Shown piece after piece: positions 11,798 to 46,982 of a stretch of 48,406 bases of DNA; within the stretch, counting starts at the first letter, position 1; every line of letters begins with the position of its first letter. The translations under genes and the position numbers were made by a program. The stretch comes from a virus (taxonomy: Duplodnaviria; Heunggongvirae; Uroviricota; Caudoviricetes), in IMG/VR virus record IMGVR_UViG_2531839448_000004; one strand, written 5' to 3'. A model generated the notes under the pieces. That model made no database searches. It worked only from the letters and a program-made list of their open reading frames with translations, and had not been told where the DNA came from.

Positions 11798-12010
11798 TCA
11801 TGAAAGGTAAACATTGGCAGCTGAAGGGCCACGCAGACCATTTATCCGGCAAAATTCCACGCGTAATCCGGTGGTAATTTCTTCTGCATCGCGGAGATTG
11901 AGCGCTGAAACATGAAGCTGGACATCGATACGACCATCGGATGGGGTGATAAGACCCTTGCCGCTTTTGCCGTCAAAGGTTTTGACAATTCCTGTCATTT
12001 TACGGGACAA
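11798..12010 (-). CDS. cspF: Cold-shock protein family (CspF/CspH-like)
   Basis: [70 protein letters not shown]; divergent from cspB as in Qin. Confidence 0.75.
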
Positions 12011-12309
12011 AAAATTCCTTAATACTGATAACTTGGCGCACTATACACACGTTCCTGAAGAAAGCTATAGTTTTTTGATGGGGTTGAAGATGGCTGGATG
12101 TCTAAAATAAACATTGCTTCATATGTTCAACTATGCGTTAATGATTGCGTCGGTTTGAAGAACAGACGATATACGAAGTAGTTTACTAAAGCAGTTCTCA
12201 TTTCAGGTGTTATTCACTTATTCCTTCTTTGAGTCTCTCCAATTAAGTACGAAGTCGTTTCTGTTATGCAAACCATTTATGCCGAAAGGCTCAAGTTAAG
12301 GAATGTAGA

Positions 12310-16080: not shown

Positions 16081-16256
16081 ATGATGAATATTGAAAACTT
16101 AAAAACAAAAGCAGAAGCAGATATTTCTGAATATATAACAAAAAAATTATTGAACTTAAGAAAAAGACCGGGAAAGAAGTTACCAGTATTCAGTTTACCG
16201 CACGGGAAAAAATGACGGGTCTTGAAAGCTATGATGTCAAGATTAATTTAATCTGA
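16081..16256 (+). pseudogene. gnsB: gnsB-like gene with a -1 frame break inside an A6 tract
   Basis: N-terminal frame MMNIENLKTKAEADISEYITKK... stops after 44 codons (TGA 16213-16215); the GnsB-like C-terminus ...TGKEVTSIQFTAREKMTGLESYDVKINLI continues in the next frame after the aaaaaa run at 16141-16146. Confidence 0.55.
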
Positions 16257-17325: not shown

Positions 17326-17649
17326 GCACCATAACTGCTAATCATTCAAACTATTTCACCTGTGACAGAGTCAATATCGCATTCTGTCACTGTCAGGCTA
17401 ATACAGAGCTGCAATTCAACTACTGCAATGTCCTCGTAATTAGGTGAATTTACAATATCGTCCTGTTCGGATGCCGGCTGCATTGCTGAAGATGAGGCAT
17501 TTATGGTTCGCATATTTTCCCCTCATGCTCGTCAGTCCTGTGCGTAGGAAGAAACAGGACACTCACACTAATTTGTGTGGGCATGCTGTGATGTCCTTCT
17601 GAATTATTCCTATGCCATTATGTAAAGCGCTGTATCAGATGCTCGTCAC

Positions 17650-17689
17650 GGCTGTCAGGCTGTCAGGCTGTCAGGCTGTCAGGCTGTCG
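17650..17689. repeat. Tandem octamer repeat (GGCTGTCA) x4 plus one variant GGCTGTCG, just upstream of the cosN-like sequence
   Basis: Directly visible: ggctgtca ggctgtca ggctgtca ggctgtca ggctgtcg. Confidence 0.9.
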
Positions 17690-26715: not shown

Positions 26716-27105
26716 ATGATGTTTCTGAAACAGGACACGTTTAATTATGAAAAACAGTCCGTGGTGCTCAGTGAGCTGTCCGGGCTGCAGAGAATTGAAT
26801 ATCTGACGTTTGTTCAGCAGCGAACGGCAAAGTTTGATGCCGGGGAGGGAGAACTGCCGGAGGCTGAACGACAGATTGCTTTTCTGCGGATGGGGATGGA
26901 TATCAATGCCTGGCTGGTTTCCCGCTCACTGTGGAATGCGGAACAGTCTCAGGATGTTGAGACGCTTTACGCATCCGTTATTACAACATGGTCGTATGAT
27001 GCCCTGGGTGCGGGGGCAGAGATGGTTCTGTCGCTGAGCGGTATGGGAGCCATTGAGAATGCCGGGGATTTGGAGCATGAGGTGCTGACGCCGGAAAAGT
27101 CCTGA
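26716..27105 (+). CDS. Tail assembly chaperone gpG-like
   Basis: MMFLKQDTFNYEKQSVVLSELSGLQRIEYL... resembles lambda G (MFLKTESFEH...TVTLSELSALQRIEHL). Confidence 0.8.
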   Translation: MMFLKQDTFNYEKQSVVLSELSGLQRIEYLTFVQQRTAKFDAGEGELPEAERQIAFLRMGMDINAWLVSRSLWNAEQSQDVETLYASVITTWSYDALGAGAEMVLSLSGMGAIENAGDLEHEVLTPEKS

Positions 27106-27443
27106 CGCGGGAAATGCAGTTTGTCATGCGGCTTGCCCGGGAGTTCCGGCGGGCAGACTGGCGGCGGATGCTGTCGGAAATGTCGGCCACTGAGCTTGGT
27201 GAGTGGGGTGATTATTTCCGGATGCAGAGCTTCAGTGATGTGTGGATGGATGCGCAGTTTGCCTCGCTGAAGGCATTGATCGTGAGAATGGTGTCCGGCA
27301 GCAGTGATGCTGCGGTGGCTGATTTCAGCCTTTTACCGGAAGAGAACGGGATACCGGAGCGAACGGACGAAGAACTGATGCATCTTGGGGAAGGTATTTC
27401 CGGAGGTGTGCGTTATGGACCAGATAGCCAACCTGGTCATTGA
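27096..27443 (+). CDS. gpT-like segment, expected to be made only as a G-T fusion by -1 frameshifting near the end of G
   Basis: Open -1 frame overlapping the G terminus; A-rich slip-prone sequence CCGGAAAAG at 27091-27099 just before the G stop (27103-27105). Confidence 0.6.
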   Translation, partial: KVLTREMQFVMRLAREFRRADWRRMLSEMSATELGEWGDYFRMQSFSDVWMDAQFASLKALIVRMVSGSSDAAVADFSLLPEENGIPERTDEELMHLGEGISGGVRYGPDSQPGH

Positions 27444-30400
27444 TTTGGGGATTGATGCGGCAGAGTTTAAAAATGAAATTCCCCGTATCAAAAACCTTCT
27501 GAATGGTGCAGCCAGCGATGCAGAACGGTCTTCTGCCCGTATGCAGCGTTTTATGGAGCGTCAGACTCAGGCCGCCCGGCAGACAACGCAGGCAGCTTCT
27601 TCGGCTGCAACAGCCGCATCCGTCCATACGCAGACGGTGGAGAAGAACGCACAGGCTCATGAACGCATGGCCCGCGAGGTGGAGAAAACCCGCCAGCGCA
27701 TGGAGGCACTGAGTCAGAAAATGCGCGAGGAACAGGCGCAGGCCATGGCTCTGGCGGAGGCTCAGGATAAAGCGGCTGCTGCGTTTTATCGTCAGATTGA
27801 CAGTGTGAAACAGGCCAGTGCGGGGCTGCAGGAATTACAGCGTATTCAGCAGCAGATCCGACAGGCCAGAAACAGTGGCGGGATTGGTCAGCAGGATTAT
27901 CTGGCGCTGATTTCTGAGGTTACTGCGAAAACCCGTGTTCTTACACAGGCTGAGGAAGAGGCTACCCGACAGAAAGTGGCGTTTATCCGTCAGCTTAAAG
28001 AGCAGGCAACCCGCCTGAATCTTTCATCTTCTGAGTTGCTTCGTGCTAAGGCAGCCCAGCTGGGGGTAAGCAGTGCTGCAGAAGTGTATATCCGCAAAAT
28101 GGAGCAGGCAGGAAAAGCCACGCATTCGCTGGGTCTGAAAAGTGCAGCAGCCCGCCAGGAGATAGGCGTTCTGATAGGTGAACTGGCCCGCGGCAATTTA
28201 GGGGCGCTGAGGGGATCCGGGATAACGCTGGCTAACCGTGCCGGATGGATAGACACACTGATGTCACCGAAAGGCATGATGCTTGGCTGGGTTATTGGCG
28301 GTATTGCCGCGGCCGTCTATGGTCTGGGTAAAGCCTGGTATGACGGTCAGAAGGAGGGGGAAGAATTTAACCGCCAGTTGTCGCTGACGGGGCATTATGC
28401 CGGAGTCACTGCCGGGCAGCTGTGGACGCTCAGTCGTGCTATTTCCGGGAATGGTATCACGCAACATGCTGCAGCCGGTGCGCTGGCTCAGGTGGTGGGG
28501 AGTGGTGCATTTCGTGGAAACGATATCGGTATGGTGGCGAGAGCTGCCGCACAGATGGAGCGATCGGTTGGCCAGTCGGTCAGCGATACCATAAATCAGT
28601 TTAAGCGGCTGAAGGATGATCCTGTAAATGCCGCGAAGGCTCTGGACAATGAGCTGCATTTTCTTACTGCCACTCAGCTTGAGCAGATACGCGTCCTTGG
28701 GGAACAGGGGCGGTCCAGTGATGCGGCACGGATAGCCATGTCTGCACTGGCAGAGGAAACCGGTCGGCGTACTGCGGATATTGATAATAACCTCAATGCG
28801 CTGGGCAGTACGCTGAAGTATCTGTCTGATTTATGGAGTCGTTTCTGGGATGCGGCCATGAATATTGGTCGTGAAGACTCGCTGGATGAACAGATTTCCG
28901 CTTTACAGGAGAAAGTGTCGCGGGCGAAAAGACTCCCCTGGACGGCATCATCTTCTCAGGTTGAGTACGATCAGCAGCGTCTTAACGAGCTTCAGGAGAA
29001 AAAACGCCAGAAGGATTTGCAGGATGCAAAAGAGCAGGCAGAGCGGAATTATCAGGAGCAACAGAAACGCCGTAATGCTGAAAATGCTGCACTGAACCGG
29101 ATGAATGAAACGGAAGCAGCACGACATCAGCGTGAAATTGCGCGTATTAATGCCATGCAGTACGCCGATCAGGCTGTCAGGGATGCGGCGATACAACGTG
29201 AAAATGAACGTTACGAGAAAGCCCTGGCATCCGGTAAGAAAAAAACACGCGAACCCCGTAATGATGAGGCCACCCGGTTATTGCTGCAGTACAGTCAGCA
29301 ACAGGCACAGGTGGAAGGACAGATTGCTGCTGCCAGACAGTCAGCAGGCATTGCCACGGAAAGGATGACAGAAGCGCATAAACAGCTTCTGGCTCTGCAA
29401 CAGCGCATCAGCGACCTGGACGGGAAAAAACTGACGGCAGATGAAAAGAGTGTGCTGGCCCGTAAAGACGAACTGATTCAGGCACTGACGCTGCTGGATG
29501 TAAAACAGCAGGAGCTTCAGAAACAGACGGCACTCAACGAGCTGAAGAAAAAACAATTCAGCTGACCAGTCAACTGGCTGAAGAAGAGCGCGCTCAGCGT
29601 CAGCAACATGACCTGGATATCGCCACGGTGGGTATGGGTGATCAGCAGCGGCAGCGATATCAGGTACAACTGAGTCTTCGCCAGAAATACCAGCAACAGC
29701 TGGAGCAGTTGAGGCGGGATAGTGAGCAGAAAGGAACATATAACACGGATGACTACAGAAAGGCCGAGCAGGCGCTGACGGAGAGCCTGAACCGACAACT
29801 GAATGAGAATCGCCGTTACTGGCAACAGCTTGAAGTTGTGCAGGGTAACTGGAAAAACGGAGTCCTGCGTGCATTTCAGGATTTTACCGTGGATGCAGAT
29901 AATACGGCAGGAACAGCAGAACAGGTGTTCTCGTCAGCCTTCAGCAACATGGGAAATGGCCTGGCAACTTTTGTCACTACCGGCAAACTCAATTTCAAAT
30001 CCTTCACCTCTTCTGTGCTGTCAGATATGGCGAAAATCCTGGCGCAGGCAACCATGATGAAATCGATAAAAGGGATTGGCAGTGTACTGGGATTTGATCT
30101 CAGCAGCCTTTCCCTGAATGCCAATGGGGGATTTATCAGTCTGCTGATTTGAGTCGTTACAGTGGCACGGTGGTTAACCGTCCGACGTTTTTTGCTTTTG
30201 CAAAAGGCGCGGGTGTGATGGGGGAAGCGGGACCTGAAGCCATTCTGCCTCTGCGTCGTGGTGCTGACGGTAAGCTGGGGGTTGTGGCCGATATTGGTGG
30301 TTCAGGTATGGCGATGTTTGCCCCGCAGTACAACATCGAGATCAATAACGATGGCACGAACGGGCAGATAGGTCCGGCTGCCCTGAAGGTGGTTTATGAC

Positions 30401-30478
30401 CTTGGGAAAAAAGCGGCAGCGGACTTTATGCAACAGCAGGCCCGTGATGGTGGTCGGTTAAGTGGAGCATATCGGTAA
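27415..30478 (+). CDS. Tape measure protein gpH-like, interrupted by two frame changes (segments 27415-29565, 29628-30152, 30149-30478)
   Basis: N-terminus MDQIANLVIDLGIDAAEF (lambda H: VGDLVVDLSLDAARF); C-terminal segment ...NIEINNDGTNGQIGPAALKVVYDL matches the lambda H C-terminus; frame changes at the A6 tract 29548-29553 and the G5 tract 30126-30130. Confidence 0.75.
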
Positions 30479-30807
30479 TGGAGACGTTTCACTGGAAAGT
30501 GCGCCCGGATATGAATGTGGTATCAGAGCCGAAAGTGGTGACAGTGAAGCTGGGCGATGGTTATGAACAGCGTCGTGCGGCGGGACTGAATAACCAGTTG
30601 TCGACTTACAGCGTGACGATACGTGTTCGTAAATGTGAACACCCATCTTTAAAAGCCTTTCTGGAACGGCACGGTGGCGTCCGCGCATTTCAGTGGACGC
30701 CACCTTATGACTGGAAACCGATTAGGGTGGTTTGTCGTAAATGGTCGGCAAGCGTGGGGGCGCTGTGGGTAACCATAACGGCAGATTTTGAACAGGTCGT
30801 GGCATAG
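30478..30807 (+). CDS. Minor tail protein gpM-like
   Basis: METFHWKVRPDMNVVSEPKVVTVKLGDGYEQR...FEQVVA, 109 aa as lambda M. Confidence 0.9.
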   Translation: METFHWKVRPDMNVVSEPKVVTVKLGDGYEQRRAAGLNNQLSTYSVTIRVRKCEHPSLKAFLERHGGVRAFQWTPPYDWKPIRVVCRKWSASVGALWVTITADFEQVVA

Positions 30808-30816
30808 GAGGCTCTG

Positions 30817-31515
30817 ATGCAGGATATTCCACAGGAAACACATCATGAGACGACACGCCTCACTCAGTCAGCCCAGGTGGTGCTCTGGGAAATCGATCTG
30901 ACAGAGGTCGGTGGTGAACGTTATTTTTTCTGTAATGAGCAGAACGAAAAAGGTGAGCCGGTTACCTGGCAGGGGCGGCAGTATCAGGCATACCCCATTC
31001 AGGGGACGGGATTTGAACTGAATGGCAAGGGCAGTGCTGCCCGTCCGACACTGACGGTTTCTAACCTGCACGGCATGGTCACCGGGATGGCGGAAGACCT
31101 GCAGAGTCTGGTCGGCGGAACGGTGGTCAGGCGTAAGGTTTACGCCCGTTTTCTGGATGCGGTGAACTTCGTCAACGGAAACAGCGACGCCGATCCGGAG
31201 CAGGAGGTGATCAGCCGCTGGCGCATCGAGCAGTGCAGCGAACTGAGTGCGGTCAGTGCCTCCTTTGTGTTGTCCACACCGACGGAAACGGATGGTGCCG
31301 TTTTTCCGGGACGTATCATGCTGGCCAACACCTGCACCTGGACCTATCGCGGCGATGAGTGCGGTTATCACGGTCCGGCGGTCGCGGATGAATATGACCA
31401 GCCAACGTCCGACATCACGAAGGATAAATGCAGCAAATGCCTGAGCGGTTGTAAGTTCCGCAATAACGTCGGCAACTTTGGCGGCTTCCTTTCCATTAAC
31501 AAACTTTCGCAGTAA
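30817..31515 (+). CDS. Minor tail protein gpL-like (Cys-rich C-terminus)
   Basis: 232 aa; C-terminal cysteine cluster CTWTYRGDECGY...CSKCLSGCKF as in lambda L. Confidence 0.9.
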   Translation: MQDIPQETHHETTRLTQSAQVVLWEIDLTEVGGERYFFCNEQNEKGEPVTWQGRQYQAYPIQGTGFELNGKGSAARPTLTVSNLHGMVTGMAEDLQSLVGGTVVRRKVYARFLDAVNFVNGNSDADPEQEVISRWRIEQCSELSAVSASFVLSTPTETDGAVFPGRIMLANTCTWTYRGDECGYHGPAVADEYDQPTSDITKDKCSKCLSGCKFRNNVGNFGGFLSINKLSQ

Positions 31516-31520
31516 ATCCC

Positions 31521-32264
31521 ATGACACAGACAGAATCATCGATTCTGGCGCACGCCCGGCGATGTGCTCCAGCGGAGTCGTGCGGCTTCGTGGTAAGAAC
31601 GCCGGAGGGGGAAAGATATTTCCCCTGCGTGAATATCTCCGGTGAGCCGGAGGCATATTTCCGTATGTCGCCGGAAGACTGGCTGCAGGCAGAGATGCAG
31701 GGTGAGATTGTGGCACTGGTCCACAGCCACCCCGGTGGTCTGCCCTGGCTGAGTGAGGCCGACCGGCGGCTGCAGGTGCAGAGTGATTTGCCGTGGTGGC
31801 TGGTCTGCCGGGGGACGATTCATAAGTTCCGCTGTGTGCCGCATCTCACCGGGCGGCGCTTTGAGCACGGTGTGACGGACTGTTACACACTGTTCCGGGA
31901 TGCTTATCATCTGGCGGGGATTGAGATGCCGGACTTTCATCGTGAGGATGACTGGTGGCGTAACGGCCAGAATCTCTATCTGGATAATCTGGAGGCGACG
32001 GGGCTGTATCAGGTGCCGTTGTCAGCGGCACAGCCGGGCGATGTGCTGCTGTGCTGTTTTGGTTCATCGGTGCCGAATCACGCCGCAATTTACTGCGGCG
32101 ACGGCGAGCTGCTGCACCATATTCCTGAACAACTGAGCAAACGAGAGAGGTACACCGACAAATGGCAGCGACGCACACACTCCCTCTGGCGTCACCGGGC
32201 ATGGCGCGCATCTGCCTTTACGGGGATTTACAACGATTTGGTCGCCGCATCGACCTTCGTGTGA
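31521..32264 (+). CDS. Tail assembly protein gpK-like (JAB/MPN + NlpC/P60 domains)
   Basis: HSHPGG motif of the JAB/MPN domain and a conserved Cys/His region; position after L. Confidence 0.88.
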   Translation: MTQTESSILAHARRCAPAESCGFVVRTPEGERYFPCVNISGEPEAYFRMSPEDWLQAEMQGEIVALVHSHPGGLPWLSEADRRLQVQSDLPWWLVCRGTIHKFRCVPHLTGRRFEHGVTDCYTLFRDAYHLAGIEMPDFHREDDWWRNGQNLYLDNLEATGLYQVPLSAAQPGDVLLCCFGSSVPNHAAIYCGDGELLHHIPEQLSKRERYTDKWQRRTHSLWRHRAWRASAFTGIYNDLVAASTFV

Positions 32265-32833
32265 AAACGGGGGCTGAAGCCATCCGGGCACTGGCCACAC
32301 AGCTCCCGGCGTTTCGTCAGAAACTGAGCGACGGCTGGTATCAGGTACGGATTGCCGGGCGGGACGTCAGCACGTCCGGGTTGACGGCGCAGTTACATGA
32401 GACTCTGCCTGATGGCGCTGTGATTCATATTGTTCCCAGAGTCGCCGGGGCCAAGTCAGGTGGCGTATTCCAGATTGTCCTGGGAGCAGCCGCCATTGCC
32501 GGATCATTCTTTACTGCCGGAGCCACCCTTGCAGCATGGGGGGCAGCCATTGGGGCCGGTGGTATGACCGGCATCCTGTTTTCTCTCGGTGCCAGTATGG
32601 TGCTCGGTGGTGTGGCGCAGATGCTGGCACCGAAAGCCAGGACGCCCACGGCAGCCAGTACAGATAACGGCAAACAGAACACGTATTTCTCGTCACTGGA
32701 TAACATGGTTGCCCAGGGCAATGTTCTGCCTGTTCTGTACGGGGAAATGCGCGTGGGATCACGTGTGGTTTCTCAGGAGATCAGCACGGCAGACGAAGGG
32801 GATGGTGGTCAGGTTGTGGTGATTGGTCGCTGA
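32162..32833 (+). CDS. Tail assembly protein gpI-like
   Basis: 223 aa; RICLYGDLQRFGRRIDLRVKTGAEAIRALATQLPAFRQ...; overlaps the 3' end of K as in lambda. Confidence 0.85.
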   Translation: MAATHTLPLASPGMARICLYGDLQRFGRRIDLRVKTGAEAIRALATQLPAFRQKLSDGWYQVRIAGRDVSTSGLTAQLHETLPDGAVIHIVPRVAGAKSGGVFQIVLGAAAIAGSFFTAGATLAAWGAAIGAGGMTGILFSLGASMVLGGVAQMLAPKARTPTAASTDNGKQNTYFSSLDNMVAQGNVLPVLYGEMRVGSRVVSQEISTADEGDGGQVVVIGR

Positions 32834-32893
32834 TGCAAAACATTTTATGTGAAACCGCCTGCGGGCGGTTTTGTCGTTTATGGAGCGTGACGA

Positions 32894-35800
32894 ATGGGTA
32901 AAGGCAGCAGTAAGGGGCATACCCCGCGCGAAGCAAAGGACAACCTGAAGTCCACGCAGTTGCTGAGTGTGATCGATGCCATCAGCGAAGGGCCGATTGA
33001 AGGTCCGGTGGATGGATTAAAAAGCGTGCTGCTGAACAGTACACCGGTGCTGGACAGTGAGAGGAATACTAACATCTCCGGTGTCACGGTGGTGTTCCGG
33101 GCAGGTGAGCAGGAACAGACACCGCCGGAGGGATTTGAATCATCAGGTTCCGAGACGGTACTGGGTACGGAAGTGAAATACGACACGCCGATCACCCGGA
33201 CCATCACGTCGGCAAACATTGACCGTCTGCGCTTTACCTTCGGTGTGCAGGCACTGGTGGAAACCACCTCAAAGGGGGACAGGAATCCGTCGGAAGTCCG
33301 CCTGCTGGTTCAGATACAACGTAACGGTGGCTGGGTGACGGAAAAAGACATCACCATTAAGGGCAAAACCACCTCGCAGTATCTGGCCTCGGTAGTGGTG
33401 GATAACCTGCCGCCGCGCCCGTTTAATATCCGGATGCGCAGGATGACGCCGGACAGCACCACAGACCAGCTGCAGAACAAAACGCTCTGGTCGTCATACA
33501 CCGAAATCATCGATGTGAAACAGTGCTACCCGAACACGGCACTGGTCGGCGTGCAGGTGGATTCGGAGCAGTTCGGCAGCCAGCAGGTGAGCCGTAATTA
33601 TCATCTGCGCGGGCGTATTCTGCAGGTGCCGTCGAACTATAACCCGCAGACGCGGCAATACAGCGGTATCTGGGACGGAACGTTTAAGCCAGCATACAGC
33701 AATAACATGGCCTGGTGTCTGTGGGATATGCTGACCCATCCACGCTACGGCATGGGGAAACGTCTCGGTGCGGCGGATGTGGACAAATGGGCGCTGTATG
33801 TCATCGGCCAGTACTGCGACCAGTCAGTGCCGGACGGCTTTGGCGGCACGGAGCCGCGCATCACCTGTAATGCGTACCTGACCACACAGCGCAAGGCGTG
33901 GGATGTGCTCAGTGATTTCTGCTCGGCGATGCGCTGTATGCCGGTATGGAACGGGCAGACGCTGACGTTCGTGCAGGACCGGCCGTCGGATAAGGTGTGG
34001 ACCTATAACCGCAGTAATGTGGTGATGCCGGATGATGGCGCGCCGTTCCGCTACAGCTTCAGCGCCCTCAAGGACCGCCATAATGCCGTTGAGGTGAACT
34101 GGATTGACCCGGATAACGGCTGGGAGACGGCGACAGAGCTTGTGGAGGACACGCAGGCCATTGCCCGTTACGGTCGTAACGTCACGAAGATGGATGCCTT
34201 TGGCTGTACCAGCCGGGGGCAGGCACACCGCGCCGGGCTGTGGCTGATTAAAACGGAGCTGCTGGAAACGCAGACCGTGGACTTCAGCGTGGGTGCCGAA
34301 GGGCTTCGCCATGTACCGGGCGATGTCATTGAAATCTGTGATGATGACTATGCCGGTATCAGCACCGGCGGGCGCGTGCTGGCGGTGAACAGCCAGACCC
34401 GGACGCTGACGCTCGACCGTGAAATCACGCTGCCATCCTCCGGTACCACGCTGATAAGCCTGGTTGACGGAAGTGGCAATCCGGTCAGCGTGGAGGTCCA
34501 GTCCGTCACCGACGGCGTGAAGGTAAAAGTGAGCCGTGTTCCTGACGGCGTTGCCGGATACAGCGTGTGGGGGCTGAAGCTGCCGACGCTGCGCCAGCGC
34601 CTGTTCCGCTGCGTGAGTATCCGTGAGAACGATGACGGTACGTATGCCATCACTGCCGTGCAGCATGTACCGGAAAAAGAAGCCATCGTGGATAACGGGG
34701 CGCACTTTGACGGCGACCAGAGCGACACGGTGAATGGTGTCACGCCGCCAGCAGTGCAGCACCTGACTGCCGAAGTCACCGCAGACAGTGGGGAGTATCA
34801 GGTACTGGCCCGCTGGGATACGCCGAAGGTGGTGAAGGGCGTGAGCTTCATGCTTCGCCTGACCGTGGCAGCGGATGACGGCAGTGAGCGGCTGGTCAGC
34901 ACGGCCCGGACGGCGGAAACCACATACCGCTTCAGGCAGCTGGCGCTGGGGAACTACAGGCTGACAGTCCGGGCAGTAAATGCGTGGGGACAGCAGGGCG
35001 ATCCGGCATCGGTATCGTTCCGGATTGCCGCACCGGCAGCGCCGTCGCAGATTGAGCTGACACCGGGGTATTTTCAGATAACCGCCACGCCGCATCTTGC
35101 GGTTTATGATCCGACGGTACAGTTTGAGTTCTGGTTCTCGGAAACGCGGATTACCGATATCAGGCAGGTTGAAACCACAGCCCGCTACCTTGGCACGGGG
35201 CTGTACTGGATAGCCGCCAGTATCAATATCAAACCGGGCCATGATTATTACTTTTATATCCGCAGTGTGAACACCGTTGGCAAATCGGCATTCGTGGAGG
35301 CCGTCGGTCGGGCGAGCGATGATGCGGAAGGTTACCTGGATTTTTTCAAAGGCAAGATAACCGAATCCCATCTCGGTAAAGGGCTGCTGGAAAAAGTCGA
35401 CCTGACGGAAGATAACGCCAGCAGACTGGATCAGTTTTCGAAAGAGTGGAAAGACGCCAACGATAAATGGAATGCCATGTGGGGCGTCAAAATTGAGCAG
35501 ACCGAAGACGGTAAGCATTATGTCGCGGGACTTGGCCTCAGCATGGAGGATACAGAGGAAGGCAAACTGAGCCAGTTTCTGGTTGCCGCTAACCGTATCG
35601 CGTTTATTGACCCGGCAAACGGGAATGAAACGCCGATGTTTGTGGCGCAGGGCAACCAGATATTCATGAACGAAGTGTTCCTGAAACGCCTGACGGCCCC
35701 CACCATTACCAGTGGTGGAAATCCACCGGTATTTTCCCTGACACCGGACGGAAAGCTGACCGCTAAAAATGCGGATATCAGTGGCAGTGTGAATGCGAAC

Positions 35801-36307
35801 TCCGGGACGCTCAACAACGTCACGATAAATGAAAACTGTACGATTAAGGGTATGCTGGAGGCGAATCAGGTCAGAGGTGATTTTGTTAAAACAGTATCCA
35901 AATCATTCCCGAAAAAGGCTGGTACGTGGGGTAACACGGAAACACCAGACGGGACGGTTACAGTCACCATCAGCGATGATCATAACTTTGACCGTCAAAT
36001 CATTATTCCGCCCATTATCTTTAACGGTATAGCGTATGACGATCCGGGAAGTGGTGATAACCCGGGAGGTACAAGGTACACGGGGTATGGTTTTGAAGTT
36101 CGCAAAAACGGCGTATTAATCGCATCCAGAGAAACTAAAGGGGCCATTCCCGGTAGTTACAGTGCGGTTATTGATATGCCGAGTGGCAGGGGAAGCGTCA
36201 CTCTGGAGTTTAAGATTTTCCAGAAAGGCAATCAGGGGGCAGGCAATATCACCGACTGTACGGTGATTGTGACCAAAAAGGCTGCTTCCGGCATCAGTAT
36301 TCGTTGA
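32894..36307 (+). CDS. Host-specificity protein / central tail fibre gpJ-like
   Basis: 1137 aa; position after I; lambda-J-like N-terminus. Confidence 0.92.
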
Positions 36308-36328
36308 AATTGTTATAACCCCAATAAA

Positions 36329-36354
36329 GGGCGTCAGGAATGACGCCTTTTTTA
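36329..36354 (+). terminator. Intrinsic terminator after J
   Basis: GGCGTCAggaaTGACGCCttttttatt. Confidence 0.75.
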
Positions 36355-36377
36355 TTGCAGAAAAGCGAGAGGTAATT

Positions 36378-36977
36378 ATGCGTAAAGTTTGTGCAGCCAT
36401 TTTGTCCGCAGCCATCTGTCTGGTCGTATCCGGTGCGCCTGCATGGGCGTCTGAACATCAGTCCACGCTGAGCGCGGGGTATCTTCATGCCTCGACGAAC
36501 GTTCCCGGCAGCGATGATCTTAACGGGATTAACGTGAAATACCGTTATGAGTTTACGGACACGCTGGGGATGGTGACGTCATTCAGCTATGCAGAAGACA
36601 AGAATCGCCAGCTGACTCATTACAGCGATACCCGCTGGCATGAAGATTCCGTGCGTAACCGCTGGTTCAGCGTGATGGCGGGGCCGTCTGTGCGCGTGAA
36701 TGAATGGTTCAGCGCGTATGCGATGGCGGGTGTGGCTTACAGCCGTATTTCGACTTTCTCCGGGGATTATCTCCGCGTAACTGACAACAAGGGGAAAACG
36801 CACGAAGTGCTGACCGGAAGTGATGACGGTCGCCGCAGCAACACGTCTCTGGCGTGGGGGGCTGGCGTGCAGTTTAACCCGACCGAATCCGTGGCCATTG
36901 ATATTGTTTATGAAGGCTCCGGCAGTGGCGACTGGCGCACTGACGGTTTCATCGTGGGTGTCGGTTATAAGTTCTGA
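36378..36977 (+). CDS. lom: Lom outer-membrane protein (Ail/Lom family)
   Basis: Signal peptide MRKVCAAILSAAICLVVSGAPAWA; beta-barrel pattern; C-terminal ...GVGYKF. Confidence 0.9.
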   Translation: MRKVCAAILSAAICLVVSGAPAWASEHQSTLSAGYLHASTNVPGSDDLNGINVKYRYEFTDTLGMVTSFSYAEDKNRQLTHYSDTRWHEDSVRNRWFSVMAGPSVRVNEWFSAYAMAGVAYSRISTFSGDYLRVTDNKGKTHEVLTGSDDGRRSNTSLAWGAGVQFNPTESVAIDIVYEGSGSGDWRTDGFIVGVGYKF

Positions 36978-37003
36978 TTAGCCAGGTAACACAGTGTTAT
37001 GAC

Positions 37004-37031
37004 AGCCCGCCGGTTCAGGCGGGCTTTTTTG
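37004..37031 (+). terminator. Intrinsic terminator after lom
   Basis: AGCCCGCCggttcaGGCGGGCTtttttg. Confidence 0.75.
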
Positions 37032-37041
37032 TGGGGTGAAT

Positions 37042-40000
37042 ATGGCAGTAAAGATTTCAGGTGTACTGAAAGACGGTGCAGGTAAACCGGTACAGAACTG
37101 CACAATCCAGCTGAAAGCAAAACGTAACAGCACCACGGTGGTGGTGAACACGCTGGCATCTGAAAATCCGGATGAAGCAGGGCGTTACAGCATGGACGTT
37201 GAGTACGGTCAGTACAGCGTTATTCTGTTGGTGGAAGGATTCCCGCCGTCACATGCCGGGACCATCACAGTGTATGAAGATTCCCGACCCGGTACGCTGA
37301 ATGATTTTCTCGGTGCCATGACGGAGGATGATGCCCGTCCGGAGGCACTGCGCCGTTTTGAGCTGATGGTGGAGGAGGTGGCGCGTAACGCGTCCGTGGT
37401 GGCACAGAACACGGCAGCCGCGAAGAAGTCAGCCAGTGATGCCAGCACATCAGCCCGTGAGGCGGCAACCCATGCGACTGATGCTGCAGGCTCAGCACGC
37501 GCAGCCAGCACGTCAGCCGGACAGGCCGCGTCGTCGGCTCAGTCAGCGTCTTCCAGCGCAGGAACGGCATCAACAAAGGCCAGTGAAGCATCGAAAAGTG
37601 CTGCTGCTGCAGAGTCCTCAAAAAGCGCGGCGGCCACCAGTGCCGGTGCGGCGAAAACGTCAGAAACGAATGCGGCAGCGTCACAACAATCAGCCGCCAC
37701 TTCTGCATCCACCGCGACCACGAAAGCGTCAGAAGCTGCCACCTCAGCCCGGGATGCGGCGGCCTCAAAAGAGGCAGCGAAATCATCAGAAACGAACGCA
37801 TCATCAAGTGCCAGTAGTGCAGCTTCCTCGGCAACGGCGGCAGGAAATTCCGCGAAGGCCGCAAAAACGTCTGAGACGAATGCAGATAACAGCGCACAGG
37901 CGGCAGCGGCCTCACAAACTGCATCGGCAAACTCCGCGACAGCAGCCAAAAAATCAGAAACCAACGCGAAAAATAGCGAGGCAGCAGCAAAGAGCAGCGA
38001 AACAAACGCTAAAGCCAGCGAAACTAATGCTAAATCCAGTGAAACAAACGCGGCGAAATCTGCGGCGGACGCACTTAATTATCGCAACCAGGCGCAAGTA
38101 ATTGTAGGCGATAATATCGGTCTTGGCTCAGCACCGCGTGATTGTCCTGATATTTCCGGCAACCCATCAGGGTATATCGGATTTATGCGCATTATGAGTA
38201 ATGCAAAAGGCTTTCCATCGATTGCATCCGGTGAAAGCAGTCTTACGGGGTTTATTAGTCAGGTAGATGGAACACCAGCGTATACAGGTGTATTTCAGGG
38301 ATGGGCTACGCGCTCGCTTTATACTTATCGCTGGAATCCGACAATAGGCCCGCAGTGGACGCGTCACGCAAGAAAAGATGAAGTGGACAGGCTTACTCAA
38401 CTAACAGGTAATACACGCGTATATTGTCAAAATGCAAGCAAATTTTTTGGTATCTACGATTCAGGAACATGGGGTTATTACGATGCAGAGAATAGCGAAT
38501 GGATTCCGCTTTCGATCGCGGCCGGAGGTACTGGTGCGGCAACTATTGATGGTGCCAGAACGAATCTTGGCTTAGGTAGGAACAACAGCCCTCAACTTAA
38601 CAGTCTATTTCTTGATAGATATAGTGATTCGACCAATACATACACATCTAGTGGAATTCTCCATACAAGACTGTTAGCAACTGACAGCACTGTGCGTCTT
38701 GGTGCTGATATGTATGTTGAGACTTTATCAAATGAGCCAGGTCAATTAACAATAAGGTTTACATACGATGGTTCAACTGGTGCTTCAAAATATCTAAACC
38801 TTAACTCAGAAGGTAATTTAATTGTAGATAGTGCGATACTGAGATCAACGGTTGAAAAACCTTTACAAATAAGGAGCGCTAACCCAGCAATAAGATTTAA
38901 TGAAACAGATCGCCCGGCTAACACGCCTACTTATACTCTCATTGCTAATGCTGGCGACTGGTTTATTCAGAAACGCGATTATGATGATGCCGGAAGCGTT
39001 AGTAACGCAATTGCATATAATTTCGCAAACGACAGAATTGATGTGCAAAATCTTAAAGCGTCTGGGTTAATTACAGCTAACTCAGGAATCGCAACATTAA
39101 CAGGTCATGACTGGAACTCTCAGCATACTGATAACGTCGACAAATTTAGACCAATCGCAGGCAGTACAAACGGCCCGGCAGGCTCTATGGTTCTTGGCGG
39201 CATTCATGTTCAATTTAGTAAAAATTATGCTGTGCAGTTCGGAGGCCGCAATTCCGGTTTTTGGGGAAGAACAATTGAAAATGGAACGACGCAGGAATGG
39301 AAGAAATTACTAACAGTAGACGATCTCAATTCATCTACCGATCTTGCTGTCAGGTCATTAACCACATCTAACCCGGTAAAATCTGGCGGAGGGCGAATTG
39401 ATGTCCTTGGAAGCACGTCAGACTATAGCAAAATGGATTGCTTTGTACGTGGGTTTGATAGCACCGGTAATTCTCTCGCGTGGGCGTTGGGTTCATCAGT
39501 CGGCGTAAGTAAGATGCTGTCGCTAAAAAATTTCTTTAGCGGAGCTGAGATACTGCTAAATGGTAATGACGGCGCGGTTCAACTCAAAACAGGTGCTGTT
39601 AACGGGGCTAAAGCGCAGGCGCTCACTATCAACAAGGATGAGGTTAACTCAACTGTTGATTTAACTCTTACAAAACAAACAGGGACTGGAAATCGTTTTG
39701 TTTTACAGAACTTAGGTAATACAGAACTATCATTTGCCGCAAAAGTATGGGGATCAAGTGATCGACAAAACGTTTTTGAGGTTGGAACGTCTGCTGCGTA
39801 TCTGTTTTATGCGCAAAAAACGTCAGCAGGCCAGTTGTTTGATGTAAATGGCGCTATTAATTGCACAACGCTGAATCAGTCATCAGACCGCGACCTTAAA
39901 GACGATATTCTCGTTATCAGCGACGCGACGAAAGCAATCCGTAAAATGAACGGATACACCTACACGCTCAAGGAAAACGGGATGCCTTATGCTGGCGTTA

Positions 40001-40317
40001 TTGCACAGGAAGTAATGGAGGCGATACCAGAAGCTGTGGGATCGTTTACTCATTATGGTGAAGAGTTGCAAGGTCCGACCGTTGACGGCAACGAGCTACG
40101 CGAAGAAACTCGCTATCTTAATGTTGACTACTCCGCCGTGACGGGTTTACTTGTTCAGGTCGCCCGTGAAACAGATGATCGCGTTACCGCGCTGGAAGAG
40201 GAAAACACAACGCTACGTCAAAATCTGGCAACAGCAGGCACCCGGATCAGCACTCTGGAAAATCAGGTAAGCGAACTGGTTGCACTTGTCCGGCAGTTAA
40301 CAGGAAGCGAACATTGA
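37042..40317 (+). CDS. Side tail fibre protein with Ala/Ser-rich repeat collar and C-terminal intramolecular-chaperone (S74-like) domain
   Basis: N-terminus MAVKISGVLKDGAGKPVQNCTIQLKAKRNSTTVV...; C-terminal ...DRDLKDDILVISDATKAIRKMNGYTYTLKENGMPYAGVIAQEV... is chaperone-domain-like. Confidence 0.85.
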   Translation: MAVKISGVLKDGAGKPVQNCTIQLKAKRNSTTVVVNTLASENPDEAGRYSMDVEYGQYSVILLVEGFPPSHAGTITVYEDSRPGTLNDFLGAMTEDDARPEALRRFELMVEEVARNASVVAQNTAAAKKSASDASTSAREAATHATDAAGSARAASTSAGQAASSAQSASSSAGTASTKASEASKSAAAAESSKSAAATSAGAAKTSETNAAASQQSAATSASTATTKASEAATSARDAAASKEAAKSSETNASSSASSAASSATAAGNSAKAAKTSETNADNSAQAAAASQTASANSATAAKKSETNAKNSEAAAKSSETNAKASETNAKSSETNAAKSAADALNYRNQAQVIVGDNIGLGSAPRDCPDISGNPSGYIGFMRIMSNAKGFPSIASGESSLTGFISQVDGTPAYTGVFQGWATRSLYTYRWNPTIGPQWTRHARKDEVDRLTQLTGNTRVYCQNASKFFGIYDSGTWGYYDAENSEWIPLSIAAGGTGAATIDGARTNLGLGRNNSPQLNSLFLDRYSDSTNTYTSSGILHTRLLATDSTVRLGADMYVETLSNEPGQLTIRFTYDGSTGASKYLNLNSEGNLIVDSAILRSTVEKPLQIRSANPAIRFNETDRPANTPTYTLIANAGDWFIQKRDYDDAGSVSNAIAYNFANDRIDVQNLKASGLITANSGIATLTGHDWNSQHTDNVDKFRPIAGSTNGPAGSMVLGGIHVQFSKNYAVQFGGRNSGFWGRTIENGTTQEWKKLLTVDDLNSSTDLAVRSLTTSNPVKSGGGRIDVLGSTSDYSKMDCFVRGFDSTGNSLAWALGSSVGVSKMLSLKNFFSGAEILLNGNDGAVQLKTGAVNGAKAQALTINKDEVNSTVDLTLTKQTGTGNRFVLQNLGNTELSFAAKVWGSSDRQNVFEVGTSAAYLFYAQKTSAGQLFDVNGAINCTTLNQSSDRDLKDDILVISDATKAIRKMNGYTYTLKENGMPYAGVIAQEVMEAIPEAVGSFTHYGEELQGPTVDGNELREETRYLNVDYSAVTGLLVQVARETDDRVTALEEENTTLRQNLATAGTRISTLENQVSELVALVRQLTGSEH
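37600..38060 (+). repeat. In-frame tandem repeats encoding reiterated A-K-(S/T)-S-E-T-N-A motifs within the tail-fibre gene
   Basis: Repeated peptide units AAKTSETNAAAS, AKSSETNASSSAS, AKTSETNADNSAQ, KKSETNAKNSEAAAKSSETNAKASETNAKSSETNAAKSA. Confidence 0.8.
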
Positions 40318-40353
40318 TATCCTTCAAGCCCTGAAGGAGGCTGTTCCTGGTAC

Positions 40354-40488
40354 GTTCAGACTGTTGCTGAGCTGGAGATCGCAACGGAGGAAGAGAAAGC
40401 GTTTCTGGCCGCATGGAAAACATATCGGGTATTGCTGAACCGTGTTGATACAGTAAACCCCGTCTGGCCTCCACCTTCGAAGCGATAG
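40354..40488 (+). pseudogene. Tail-fibre assembly (Tfa) C-terminal remnant
   Basis: Reads [43 protein letters not shown], resembling conserved Tfa C-termini; no start codon and no N-terminal part; in frame directly after the stf stop. Confidence 0.6.
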
Positions 40489-40792
40489 CCCAGCAACTCC
40501 TAAATAGCTGCGCATAATACCGCTACACCTGCCGTTTTACTGACATTTGGAATATTGCGTGAGGGCAACATATCGAGGGGCAGATACAGCTCGGTCAAAT
40601 AGAAAAACAGCCCCACTATTTACCATGCAATAGCTGGTCAAAAGGAGAGCACTATTCCGCTCCGCGTAGTATTTTGTGTTTATAGTGATAACTTAGGTAA
40701 TGCTTAGTCACTAAGATACTTTGCTATTGGAGAGCGATTTATAATGTGGGCGCAACAGATTTTTACTATTGCGCCACTTGCTCTTGTGAGTA

Positions 40793-41881
40793 CTATTCGC
40801 TATAAGTTAATGTTGGTTTTGAAAGTCTTTTGGATATTGTTTTTCCGATATTAATGAATGGAGTTTCAATATATTTATAAATAAAGAATGATAAGAACAA
40901 GCTAAGAGCAATAATGAATGAAAACTTAGAGAACCCAGGTTTTTCATAAAGCGGAATGAAATCCTTAAAATTAATTAAAAATAGCATTACTATCGCATGG
41001 GATAAATACAGAGAGTAAGAGATATCACCTAGCTTACTGAGTATTTTATTTTCCCTTAATCCGAAGTTAACTTCATAAAGTAAAACTCCCGTAATTATGG
41101 AGGCTGCCCACAATCCGAAGTTTAAAGGGCCATGACCAAATCTGAATTGATAAAAATATGAGCAAACACCAAATGAAACCAAAAGGAATGATATCGCCTT
41201 TGCGTTTTTTATATATTTAAATTTTCTGTGTATTATATACAGAAACATCCCATAAACGAATTCTAACAGCATGGGTGATGACATTAAGTTTAGAAAGCCA
41301 ATATGCCAATGACCTGTATCACCAATCGTAAACTTACTTGATAGAGAAAGGCTGTTGGAAAATTTCAACTGTATGAGAAGTAGCGGGACTATCAATGCAA
41401 TAACTGATATTAATAATCTGTTTTTATGACTCAGCGATATTGCAAGCATAAAAATGAAATAAAAATAGACTTCAAAGGTTAATGTCCATGCTGGATAAAG
41501 CACGTTGTATCCGAAGAATGGCGCTTCTGAATAATAGTCCAGGTGAAGCAGAAACAATGAACGCAATAATTCACTTTCGGTGAAGACTGGGTTCAATAAA
41601 AAGAATAAGATTGTGCAAATGAAAAATACAGGGTAAATCCTGAAAAAACGCCTGGTCATAAAGTTAATAGGGGAATTTGTTTCTTTTTTTTGACTCGATA
41701 ACATTATTATAAATCCACTTATAATAAAAAACAGATCAACCCCAAAACCACCACTAATAAACAATAAATCACCTAGATCTTTTTGTGCGTAAACTTCATT
41801 TAGGTATTGTTTATTGTGATATGCAACAACGAGTAATGCTGCTACACCTCGCAAATAGTGAATTGATTTTACCTTCTTCAT
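40793..41881 (-). CDS. Acyltransferase-3 family membrane protein (OafA/Oac-like O-antigen acetyltransferase candidate)
   Basis: 362 aa, polytopic, markedly AT-rich; N-terminal YLRGVAALLVVAYH motif typical of acyltransferase-3 proteins. Confidence 0.75.
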   Translation of the reverse strand: MKKVKSIHYLRGVAALLVVAYHNKQYLNEVYAQKDLGDLLFISGGFGVDLFFIISGFIIMLSSQKKETNSPINFMTRRFFRIYPVFFICTILFFLLNPVFTESELLRSLFLLHLDYYSEAPFFGYNVLYPAWTLTFEVYFYFIFMLAISLSHKNRLLISVIALIVPLLLIQLKFSNSLSLSSKFTIGDTGHWHIGFLNLMSSPMLLEFVYGMFLYIIHRKFKYIKNAKAISFLLVSFGVCSYFYQFRFGHGPLNFGLWAASIITGVLLYEVNFGLRENKILSKLGDISYSLYLSHAIVMLFLINFKDFIPLYEKPGFSKFSFIIALSLFLSFFIYKYIETPFINIGKTISKRLSKPTLTYSE

Positions 41882-42319
41882 TTTTATATAATCACTGTTC
41901 CAATTTTTTTATTTTACAAACAATTCTATCTAGCTCATTAGTACTCAAAGTCAGATTGGTAGCAATAAAAAAACAAGATATGTGATGACATGGCGCGGGG
42001 CTCAGAACCACTCGTGTATTTTCGCCACTGGCTATGACTGGCTGCACCTGCAAGATCTGCCATTTGTGTGCCAGTATACCCAAGCTCTGACTTTATGTTT
42101 ACCAGATCCTCTGGAGTGCCGGGGAGTATAATCGTTGATTAATCGAATCTGCAACTATTTCAGAACGACCTAGGTTAAAGTGCGCTCTGCAGTCTCTTAT
42201 ATAAGGTGATACTTTAATTGTCTGGAAACTGGACAGGTTAGGAAGGAGCAGGAAACATCTTATTATACTTACCGAGTAGCTGCGGGTAAGGGGGGGATTT
42301 CCGTAGCCTGACAGGTAAC

Positions 42320-42594
42320 ATTGACACGTCAACATCGATGGTTTTTTTTATTTTTCCATGTGATGGAGCCCTGGTTGAAATGAAGCGTGAACTGATTGAT
42401 GACTGAACAAAAGTTGGACTGGAAGATGCTCGCGCACAGGGAGGAATTGGTGGACGTCGTCCTAAACTTACATCAGAACAATGGGCGCAGGCCGGGCGAT
42501 TAATTGCATCAAAAGTCCCGCGTCAGAAGGTGGCGATCATCTATGATATTGGTGTATCGACTTTGTATAAGAGGTTTCCAGCCAGGATTATATA
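42320..42594 (+). pseudogene. Decayed C-terminal fragment of a Pin/Hin-family serine DNA invertase
   Basis: Frames give ...GALVEMKRELIDD* then ...GGIGGRRPKLTSEQWAQAGRLIASKVPRQKVAIIYDIGVSTLYKRFPARII*, matching the invertase C-terminal HTH region, with in-frame stops and frame changes; catalytic N-terminus absent. Confidence 0.65.
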
Positions 42595-42918
42595 AAACTG
42601 CAGACACGCCGTATGCAAGACGTGCTGCGGTTGGTTGATGCACTTTCGAGAGTGTATGTATTGAATAATTTCCAACCGTCATTAATTTTATTTATTTTTT
42701 GCATGAGAGGATTTGAACCTCCGAGCCTCGACACCTTATGACAACGCGATATTCCCTTGATGACCGCTATGCGCCAAAATAACCAATTGATAAATAAGTT
42801 GATTTTAATTGGTTGGAAGCAAGTCAGGTCAAATTCAGCATGCCGCTCTCTGTATCGGGTAGTTAAATTTTTCTATAACTGATAGTAATATGTTAAAACT
42901 CACACAGATAAATTATCA

Positions 42919-44901
42919 TTGCTCAACAAGTATAATGGAGTTCCCGTGGATACAGCAGAACATGATGGCAAATTTGCTTGGGCTAGTTTTTATGAGGCTT
43001 TTGCCAACGCGTTACTGACTTGGCGAAATCGTAGAGATGAATTAGTCAAAGGTATTCATCTAATTGCCTCAGGTGTGGAAGGAATGTCCCATCTGCAGGA
43101 CAAATCTATTATGGGAGAGATCTTTCCCTTAAAAGACATTTGTCCGTTTACTACTATGGGCTTGTTCAATCGTAACTTGACCGACAGCAATCGCAAAATT
43201 ATTGCTGCCAAGCTAGCGAATTTGTTGGGCGTGAACGAACCGATTCCTGACTCCTTTGCCGGAATCCCGCTGTTGAATAACCAAAAATCTTGGTTCTTTG
43301 GTTATGAAAAGTCACGCGACCCTAATGACATTGAATGCTTGTGGGAAATGTTCTCGCAGGCAATGACCTTTGCGGATAACCAGAATACTAACTCTGCAGA
43401 CTTCACTGCCGCATATGACATCGCTTCTACAGTAATGAATGTCGGTTGGAATCTCACCATGGGGTTGTACTGGACCCGTCCTTGGTTCTACCCTACTTTA
43501 GATAGCCAGTCGCAGTATTACATTCAGACAGTGTTAAACATTAAGATCATTAAAAACGGGGCAAAAGGTCGCTGTAGTGGACAAAGTTACCTGAGTCTTA
43601 TGCGGGCGCTGAACGAGGTCTTTACCCAACCAAACTATCCGGTTCATTCTTTCCCAGAACTTTCTTTATCAGCGTGGAATACAGATCTTAGCCAGTCTAA
43701 AGATGAGGTGGCAAATAGAACGTGGAAAGCCTCTTTACTGAATAAAATTAAGGCGTTATGCCTGAAAAAAAATGGCCCTTATTTCACTGCTTCGGAGTTG
43801 GAAGAAAACTACTTGGACGTATTCAAGGTAGAGCATCCTGAGAGCAAAACAGTTACAAGCTCAATCTACTTTTATCTACAGAAACTATGCAATGATGATG
43901 AGTTAAAGTCCCTTGAGTCCGGAAATTATGAATACCTGAATTTTGAGAAAAACGAATCCCAGACGATAACTGAGGAAACTGTCGAAGAGAGTGCGCCGTT
44001 GCCAAAACTCACTCACGTTCCTTATGACATCAGTCATCTGGTGCAGGATGGCTGTTTCTTGGAAGAGGCTAAGATCCAACTCACACTTCAGCGCCTGATC
44101 GACAAGAAAAACCTGATATTACAAGGACCACCCGGAACTGGAAAAACCTGGTTAGCGCGACGTCTGGCGTACTGCTTGATGGGAGAAAAAGCACCTGAGC
44201 GTATTAGCGCGGTGCAATTTCACCCGAACCTCTCTTACGAAGACTTTATTCGCGGCTGGCGTCCAGGTAAAGAAGGGCAATTGACGCTAATTGATGGACC
44301 TTTTGTAAATGCAATCAAAACTGCAGTCAATAATCCTACCTCGAAATATGTGGTGATAATTGAAGAGATTAATCGTGGCAATCCGGCGCAAATCTTCGGT
44401 GAAACACTCACGTTGATGGAAGCAGATAAACGCACGCCGACTGAGGCATTATCTCTTTCCTATCCTAAAAATGATGATGAAAAAATATACATTCCTGAGA
44501 ATCTATATATCATCGGTACGATGAATATTGCAGACCGCTCACTCGCACTACTTGACCTAGCGCTGCGCCGTCGTTTCGCGTTTATCGATCTAAAGCCAGC
44601 TTTTAATGACGCGTGGAGAAACTGGGTAAATTATAATTACGCAATTGATTTTGACATGTTAGCATTCATCAAATCTCGACTGACGGTACTTAACGATATG
44701 CTGGCAAAAGATGTTACCTTAGGACCACAGTTTTGTATCGGTCACAGCTATGTCACCCCAGCTATCGGCCAAAAAATCAACGATGCCCAGGCTTGGTATG
44801 AACAAGTCGTTGATACAGAGATCTGCCCTTTGCTCGCCGAATATTGGTTCGATGCTCCAAATAAAGTCGATGAAGCCAGAAAAGTGTTATTAGCAAAATG
44901 A
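42919..44901 (+). CDS. McrB-like AAA+ GTPase with a long (~400 aa) N-terminal region of unrecognised type; start codon uncertain (TTG 42919 or GTG 42946)
   Basis: C-terminal motifs LILQGPPGTGKTW, VVIIEEINRGNPAQIFGETLTLMEADKR, YIIGTMNIADRSLALLDLALRRRFAF match the McrB GTPase family; ATGA overlap with the downstream McrC-like gene. Confidence 0.75.
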   Translation: MLNKYNGVPVDTAEHDGKFAWASFYEAFANALLTWRNRRDELVKGIHLIASGVEGMSHLQDKSIMGEIFPLKDICPFTTMGLFNRNLTDSNRKIIAAKLANLLGVNEPIPDSFAGIPLLNNQKSWFFGYEKSRDPNDIECLWEMFSQAMTFADNQNTNSADFTAAYDIASTVMNVGWNLTMGLYWTRPWFYPTLDSQSQYYIQTVLNIKIIKNGAKGRCSGQSYLSLMRALNEVFTQPNYPVHSFPELSLSAWNTDLSQSKDEVANRTWKASLLNKIKALCLKKNGPYFTASELEENYLDVFKVEHPESKTVTSSIYFYLQKLCNDDELKSLESGNYEYLNFEKNESQTITEETVEESAPLPKLTHVPYDISHLVQDGCFLEEAKIQLTLQRLIDKKNLILQGPPGTGKTWLARRLAYCLMGEKAPERISAVQFHPNLSYEDFIRGWRPGKEGQLTLIDGPFVNAIKTAVNNPTSKYVVIIEEINRGNPAQIFGETLTLMEADKRTPTEALSLSYPKNDDEKIYIPENLYIIGTMNIADRSLALLDLALRRRFAFIDLKPAFNDAWRNWVNYNYAIDFDMLAFIKSRLTVLNDMLAKDVTLGPQFCIGHSYVTPAIGQKINDAQAWYEQVVDTEICPLLAEYWFDAPNKVDEARKVLLAK

Positions 44902-46880: not shown

Positions 46881-46903
46881 TCTCTCCATGTGTTAAATAT
46901 TGA

Positions 46904-46935: not shown

Positions 46936-46982
46936 ATGTGGATATTATTAATAGCATATCGAGCATATTTATATAAAACCCT

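Follow-up and report, generated by a model that had tools for sequence, protein, structure and literature searches.

Two missing homopolymer bases that split a lambda-H-like tape measure gene into three reading frames are probably an artefact of a draft assembly

The tail tape measure gene described here is written in three reading frames in succession, which raises the question of whether the gene has been inactivated by mutation, is reassembled from its pieces during its expression, or was misread when the DNA was sequenced. The gene occupies positions 27415-30478 of the window (the whole stretch of 48,406 nt that was analysed), and both the listing of open reading frames and the sequence place it in frames 1, 3 and 2 (Table 1). 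The first junction reads CTG AAG AAA AAA C and the second AAT GGG GGA, and a -1 change of frame is needed at each. A sequence-only reading of this DNA had described a gpH-like gene, complete in content and matching lambda H at both ends, with two -1 frame changes, one at an A-run and then one at a G-run; this description proved correct throughout, including its coordinates.

Several lines of evidence identify the gene. Pfam detects TMP_2 (1.3e-49) and TMP_4 (6.8e-16) in piece 1 and Tape_meas_lam_C (1.8e-23) in piece 2, and the intact 1021-aa homologue has the same domain architecture. The alignment of this intact protein with lambda gpH covers residues 2-56 (against 3-57, E=4e-8) and then everything from residue 297 to its last residue, 1021 (against 128-853, E=1e-49), the conserved INNDGTNGQIGPAALK motif included. 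The gene follows the G/T chaperone genes and precedes M-L-K-I-J, as in the canonical order of lambda tail genes, with Pfam matches running from the major tail protein through TAC_2 (G), Phage_tail_T, TMP, Phage_min_tail (M), Phage_tail_L, NlpC_P60 (K) and Lambda_tail_I to GpJ.

Table 1. Pieces of the tape measure gene, its two frame breaks, the upstream chaperone genes and the other contracted runs (positions in the window)
Feature	Position	Strand	Details
Tail chaperone genes G and T (upstream)	26716..27443	+	G stop 27103-27105; T in -1 frame, open from 27081
Tape measure piece 1	27415..29565	+	Frame 1; ATG 27415; TGA 29563-29565; 716 aa ending KKQFS (stop)
A6 run, first -1 frame break	29548..29553	+	Intact homologues have A7
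Tape measure piece 2	29553..30152	+	Frame 3; open from 29466; TGA 30150-30152
G5 run, second -1 frame break	30126..30130	+	Intact homologues have G6
Tape measure piece 3	30128..30478	+	Frame 2; open from 30098; C-terminal ~115 residues with lambda-H-like INNDGTNGQIGPAALK end
Contraction	11-15		A AAA AAG motif of IS3 transposase
Contraction	7183-7187		flxA
Contraction	12009-12014		cspB-cspF spacer
Contraction	16140-16146		gnsB
Three contractions	41904-41910, 42290-42296, 42342-42349		Intergenic/pseudogene stretch with long runs
Contraction	45367-45371		mcrC
Two contractions	46.65 kb		Near icd fragment

Comparison with relatives reduces the split to two bases. By megablast against 5426 complete E. 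coli genomes, ~3000 carry the region, as do phages related to mEp460 and cdtI, and it is annotated there as one tape measure gene of 3066 nt and 1021 aa. Essentially all relatives carry A7 and G6, including genomes with 0-3 substitutions against the window in 32 kb, and the free-living phages mEp460 and cdtI, in which the gene is a single ORF. Between the prophage of strain CV839-06 and window positions 27300-30600 the sole differences are one A and one G missing from the window; the gene itself contains no substitution, and piece 1 is identical to the CV839-06 protein WP_000372058.1 as far as the A-run, so that its product consists of 711 native residues and five out-of-frame residues before the TGA. 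No single uninterrupted ORF for the whole protein exists in the window as given; insertion of both bases in silico restores A7 and G6 and yields the CV839-06 gene exactly, with 3066 nt, 1021 aa and no internal stop. The split into three frames is thus real as sequence, and it arises from two missing bases in homopolymer runs only.

The origin of these letters can be traced. Positions 17415-39565 of the window are 100% identical to contig AFEB01000030.1 of assembly GCA_000225245.2 (E. coli TX1999, a 2011 draft), a contig that was reached by exact look-up of the 716-aa product; the pieces are deposited for TX1999 as EGX23946, EGX23948 and EGX23949. We propose that the two frame breaks would be undercalls of homopolymer length in this draft, made by a platform that under-reads long runs, so that the cause would be technical rather than mutational and the real gene would be an ordinary intact lambda-H-like tape measure gene with A7 and G6. 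We put the probability that both breaks are sequencing artefacts at about 0.6. The split is most likely an artefact because the same one-directional homopolymer defect recurs all along the window.

We aligned positions 1-32364 of the window to the Qin-site prophage of CV839-06, and positions 30814-48406 to the icd(e14)-site prophage of the same strain with its flank. These alignments contain 12 single-base deletions in the window, every one a contraction in a mononucleotide run of 6-9 bases, against which there is not a single run expansion (sign test p=5e-4). The contracted fraction climbs with the length of the run in the reference: none of the 736 runs of 4-5 bases is affected (0/567 and 0/169), as compared to 5/64 runs of six bases, 3/13 of seven, 3/8 of eight and 1/1 of nine. 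Ten of these contractions lie outside the tape measure gene, in the same direction, in unrelated genes and in intergenic DNA (two intergenic), and they also break the reading frames of flxA, gnsB, mcrC and the IS3 transposase. The inference of a tail-defective prophage, which the sequence-only reading had drawn from the split, is not supported by this result; with ten further contractions in unrelated genes and intergenic DNA, the most doubtful element is the sequence itself. The 2.9 kb of chromosomal flank on the left, in which only the IS3 run differs from CV839-06, is too short to add power.

The scarcity of substitutions points in the same direction. Three near-identical complete genomes were compared over positions 1-31800, and substitutions were polarised with ETEC1731 and ETEC1747. 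Three substitutions separate the window from CV839-06 in this interval. Six contractions are private to TX1999, which also carries an additional copy of an 8-bp repeat and two substitutions absent from all three complete genomes. One of these two, the G at 18011, is common to AIGD01, AIGE01 and other assemblies, leaving 17736 as the only strictly private one and giving a total of 1-2 private substitutions in 31.8 kb. The interval 38450-48406 has six contractions and 0 substitutions. The probability of finding at least six contractions ranges from 7e-8 to 0.017 for indels 0.1-1 times as frequent as substitutions: it is 0.017 if the two are equally frequent, and about 7e-8 under a roughly tenfold deficit of indels, which is the usual relation between the two. 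Such a pattern is characteristic of a platform that reads long homopolymer runs as too short, and not of evolutionary divergence. We considered a mutator, i.e. mismatch-repair-deficient, lineage and rejected it, since transitions are expected to exceed indels several-fold in such lineages and only 1-2 private substitutions are seen.

We do not suppose that every shortened run is an error. A stronger claim, that all twelve contractions are private to TX1999, was rejected as too strong: the three runs at 41.9-42.3 kb vary in length among complete genomes too, and the truncated gnsB product is found on at least 1000 contigs (the nearest relatives of the window all have A8 at that site). Some of the run-length differences in the region are therefore genuine polymorphisms.

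The two breaks in the tape measure gene differ in how far they are shared with other sequences. We searched complete E. coli genomes carrying the region with 61-mers centred on each run. The exact A6 61-mer occurs in 2/1802 genomes and the exact G5 61-mer in 4/1538, counts that are lower bounds because A6 or G5 combined with one substitution scores like the longer run; all remaining matches stand at about 98% identity, the value for a run longer by one base. Among near-identical prophages G5 is found in TX1999 alone, and otherwise only in three error-laden Logan contigs and in strain 204446. The Logan contigs (SRR30949427/443/624) carry A6 and G5 together with 4-8 further homopolymer deletions within 1.5-3.4 kb. 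Strain 204446 carries A6, G5 and four more indels in the gene (six in total); its T gene and its K-equivalent C40 peptidase gene are marked as frameshifted, and the locus stands at the extreme end of the record. ETEC1731, near-identical in other respects, has a +A frameshift of its own elsewhere in the tape measure gene, and the NCTC assembly UARZ01 has A8 at the first run. Frameshifted tape measure genes are thus frequently produced when this prophage is imperfectly assembled. We regard G5 as very probably an artefact.

The A6 run is the site at which a true mutation has to be taken seriously. A6 also occurs in AIGE01, AIGD01, UIKY01, the Logan assembly SRR491126, strain 204446 and 24A16CRGN010, and the 716-aa product is encoded again in AIGE01000015, AIGD01000009, UIKY01000042 and the SRR491126 Logan contig, all four of which have G6. 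The gene could thus be a genuine pseudogene, in which slipped-strand mispairing shortened A7, and possibly G6, in a prophage no longer under selection. A real A7-to-A6 mutation, inherited or recurrent, is a possible reading because A6 is present in four other assemblies and because AIGD01 and UIKY01, the A-run aside, show no indel across 15-16 kb; counting the window, the assemblies with A6 number five, and at least two submitters deposited them. AIGD01 and AIGE01 moreover match the window in the 18011 G allele and in the copy number of the 8-bp repeat, which gives A6 the look of an inherited mutation, and long runs are natural mutation hot spots, as the A8 of UARZ01 at the same run illustrates. 

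Other features of A6 argue against inheritance. The allele is at odds with the substitution tree: it is found together with 18011 G as well as with 18011 T, and in many assemblies that have 18011 G the 1021-aa gene is intact. Two T-run contractions are private to AIGE01, and its closest relative NXMG01, with which it has the 25501 T and the 191-aa Z gene call in common, carries an intact 1021-aa gene. The protein accession prefixes EGX, EHV and EHW suggest that TX1999 and both AIG assemblies may date from the same period and presumably come from the same centre. The 716-aa product is found on only about 5 contigs, as compared to 266 for the intact product with an identical N-terminal part and at least 1000 for close variants. 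The 283-aa downstream ORF was tried as a proxy for the frequency of A6 and rejected; it occurs on ~100 contigs, mostly because the 5' part of the gene is deleted or broken by other lesions, and among the places read for this ORF A6 was present in AIGE01 and UIKY01 only. On account of the two 18011 backgrounds, the mismatch between AIGE01 and NXMG01 and the rarity of the 716-aa product, we consider it more likely that A6 is an artefact than that it is real, with less assurance than for G5.

As an account of the whole locus, a pseudogene would further require that the inactivation be extremely recent, given that the gene has no substitution relative to CV839-06; it would require about ten independent run contractions accompanied by 1-2 substitutions and by no expansion; and it would have to accommodate a G5 that is private to TX1999 among near-identical prophages, and two alleles that are both very rare in complete genomes. 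The weight of this explanation is probably carried mostly by A6, and we rate it as the main rival, possible but less probable than an artefact.

The element itself is a hybrid of a Qin-site and an e14-site prophage into which IS3 and ISEsa1 have inserted. The left arm belongs to the Qin-site prophage and has IS3 at the ynfB boundary and a remnant of ISEsa1; the right arm is the icd-site prophage from inside gene K onwards (crossover at 31716-31814), and ends in an icd fragment, iraM and ycgX. The junction of the two arms may be a true inversion or a misjoin of contigs. No integrase gene is present within the window. An element so crippled, in a prophage family that is often truly degraded (5' gene deletions; H and J stops in CV839-06), favours a pseudogene; by the same token a true inactivation would add little, as the element is not otherwise a complete prophage. 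Many contigs of this family carry deletions that remove the 5' part of the tape measure gene, and in CV839-06 the H and J genes of the second lambdoid prophage are interrupted by internal stops.

The sequence-only reading had also left room for a low level of full-length product through ribosomal slippage. Under such recoding the complete protein would be made by -1 ribosomal slippage, with tRNA-Lys slipping on the A-run and tRNA-Gly on the G-run; the alternative route would be transcriptional slippage. The idea has some appeal: A-runs that are read by tRNA-Lys of E. coli are by nature prone to shifts, as dnaX and the IS3 family show; the first zero-frame stop comes three codons past the A-run, with frame overlaps of 97 and 52 nt; and the cluster is expected to have its genuine programmed -1 frameshift, of the lambda type, just upstream at the overlap of G and T. 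It fails on the details of the two sites. The zero-frame codons at site 1 are CTG AAG AAA AAA CAA, with the heptamer G AAA AAA, and site 2 offers T GGG GGA; neither site has an X XXY YYZ slippery heptamer in the zero frame, and G AAA AAA allows slippage of a single tRNA only, since the P-site tRNA would have to re-pair with GAA. The 80 nt downstream of site 1 fold no better than shuffled sequence (z=0.11), and no stimulatory structure is found 5-9 nt downstream of site 2, where z=-2.5 stems from a hairpin ~55 nt downstream. Nor is the split-frame arrangement conserved among homologues, nearly all of which are one ORF (A6 in 2/1802 and G5 in 4/1538; single ORF in mEp460 and cdtI). Two independent, unprogrammed shifts of low efficiency would multiply to a negligible yield, and transcriptional slippage is not efficient on runs as short as 5-6 bases. 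We therefore regard recoding as unsupported and very improbable.

A further reading is that A7/A6, and perhaps G6/G5, form a real, recurrently mutating switch in the tape measure gene of this widespread family of prophages, by which tail production would be turned reversibly off and on, or which would be bypassed in part by tRNA-Lys slippage. The recurrence of A6 in several independent assemblies would then have a biological cause; we regard such a switch as very improbable.

What the split means for the phage depends on whether the breaks are true. If they are, translation would end after 716 aa, without the Tape_meas_lam_C domain and the conserved C-terminus; going by what is known of lambda gpH, this loss should abolish tail initiation, and a true pseudogene would mean no functional tape measure and no tails. 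Even so, a true A6 would be just another inactivating mutation, of an ordinary kind, in a prophage that is crippled already. The situation is ordinary whether the outcome is artefact or real mutation, and no open question is affected by it. The practical lesson is one of caution: when a phage structural gene appears frameshifted in a draft or long-read-only assembly, the neighbouring sequence should be checked first for the homopolymer signature, and neither prophage decay nor recoding should be inferred before such a check.

The homopolymer errors of flow-based and long-read sequencing resemble what is seen in the window, where likewise only runs of at least 6 bases are affected, only contractions occur, their frequency rises with run length and they outnumber substitutions; as with such errors, other noisy assemblies have miscalls at these very sites. 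Unlike pure sequencing error, A6 is also found in otherwise clean-looking assemblies. The programmed sites of lambda G/T and dnaX and the A AAA AAG site of IS3 have in common with the first break an A-rich run that is decoded by tRNA-Lys, with a zero-frame stop nearby; unlike them, the window lacks a conserved split, an in-frame heptamer for tandem slippage and a stimulatory structure, and requires two shifts.

The closest counterparts of the gene are those of mEp460, cdtI and the Qin-site prophages of E. coli (e.g. CV839-06), which are 99.2-99.9% identical in DNA to the window over the whole gene and its flanks and have the same gene order, V-G-T-H-M-L-K-I-J; the window differs from them in A6 for A7 and G5 for G6, which places its ORF in three frames. 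Lambda gpH (853 aa) is a more distant relative: the intact form of the window's protein resembles it in the N-terminal ~55 residues, in TMP_2 and in Tape_meas_lam_C, with 25% identity over residues 297-1021 and near-identity in the last ~50 residues, whereas the intact form is 168 aa longer, its central coiled-coil is divergent and its DNA is recognisably similar over 61 nt only.

The tape measure gene is not the only gene in the window that is affected by homopolymer length. The adenine run in the IS3-family transposase gene, which extends past the left end of the window, is a contraction of the same type as those in the tape measure gene; if it is true, the slippery motif of the transposase would be lost. 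Three further genes, i.e. flxA, gnsB and mcrC, are frameshifted in the same manner (see table). The 43-aa truncated GnsB product is encoded on at least 1000 database contigs, and therefore the A7/A8 run length of gnsB is a genuine polymorphism in E. coli as well.

Features of the window and their coordinates
Feature	Window position	Strand	Detail
A5 run in IS3-family transposase gene	11-15		A6 in relatives; within A AAA AAG programmed-frameshift motif
flxA frameshift	7183-7187	-	Single-base homopolymer contraction vs. nearest relatives
gnsB frameshift	16140-16146		Single-base homopolymer contraction vs. nearest relatives
8-bp tandem repeat GTCAGGCT	17645-17688		5.4 copies
G/T tail chaperone overlap	27081-27105		G stop at 27103-27105; T in -1 frame, open from 27081
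Match to Aeromonas phage AP1 record	29149-29386		MT713136.1 251326-251563; unannotated stretch near the end of the record
Junction of two prophage arms	31716-31814		Inside gene K (31521-32264)
mcrC frameshift	45367-45371		Single-base homopolymer contraction vs. nearest relatives

Isolated frameshifts also occur in near-identical prophage copies from RefSeq “complete” genomes, each of which carries its own: the tape measure gene of ETEC1731 has an A4 run with one additional A (L018, 28010-31076); ETEC1747 has an additional T in the portal gene (L019, 10486-11962); and strain 204446 (L026) has six indels within the tape measure gene. PGAP calls the frameshifted genes of all three copies pseudogenes. 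Among assemblies this closely related, indels are more numerous than substitutions.

Many assemblies of E. coli and Shigella retain the 3′ third of the tape measure gene as a 283-aa ORF, located directly downstream of the head genes (L032, L033, L035, L037 and L038), and large deletions in these assemblies have removed the tail genes from Z through the middle of H. Such loci demonstrate real decay of the prophage family of the window, by another route.

The window joins two prophages as a hybrid: the left arm (1-31715) corresponds to the lambdoid prophage at the Qin site (ynfB side) of E. coli CV839-06, and the right arm (31815-48406) matches the icd/e14-site prophage of the same genome and continues into iraM-ymgL-ycgX. 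As the two prophages are mutually inverted and separated by ~0.4 Mb in CV839-06, the arrangement implies either recombination between prophages with a large inversion or a contig misjoin. A similar junction, offset by ~200 bp, is present in UIKY01000042.

The small terminase (DUF1441) gene is preceded, at a distance of ~225 nt, by the GTCAGGCT repeat, whose copy number varies by 1-2 units between otherwise near-identical prophages (CV839-06, ETEC1731, ETEC1747, UIKY01 and SRR12505091). A 238-nt segment of the 254-kb record of Aeromonas phage AP1 (MT713136.1) shares 99.6% identity with the E. coli tape measure gene; contamination or a chimeric end of the record is the probable explanation.

A lambda-type programmed frameshift between G and T is predicted at the tail chaperone overlap, where the window reads CCG GAA AAG TCC TGA, whereas lambda has G GGA AAG instead.
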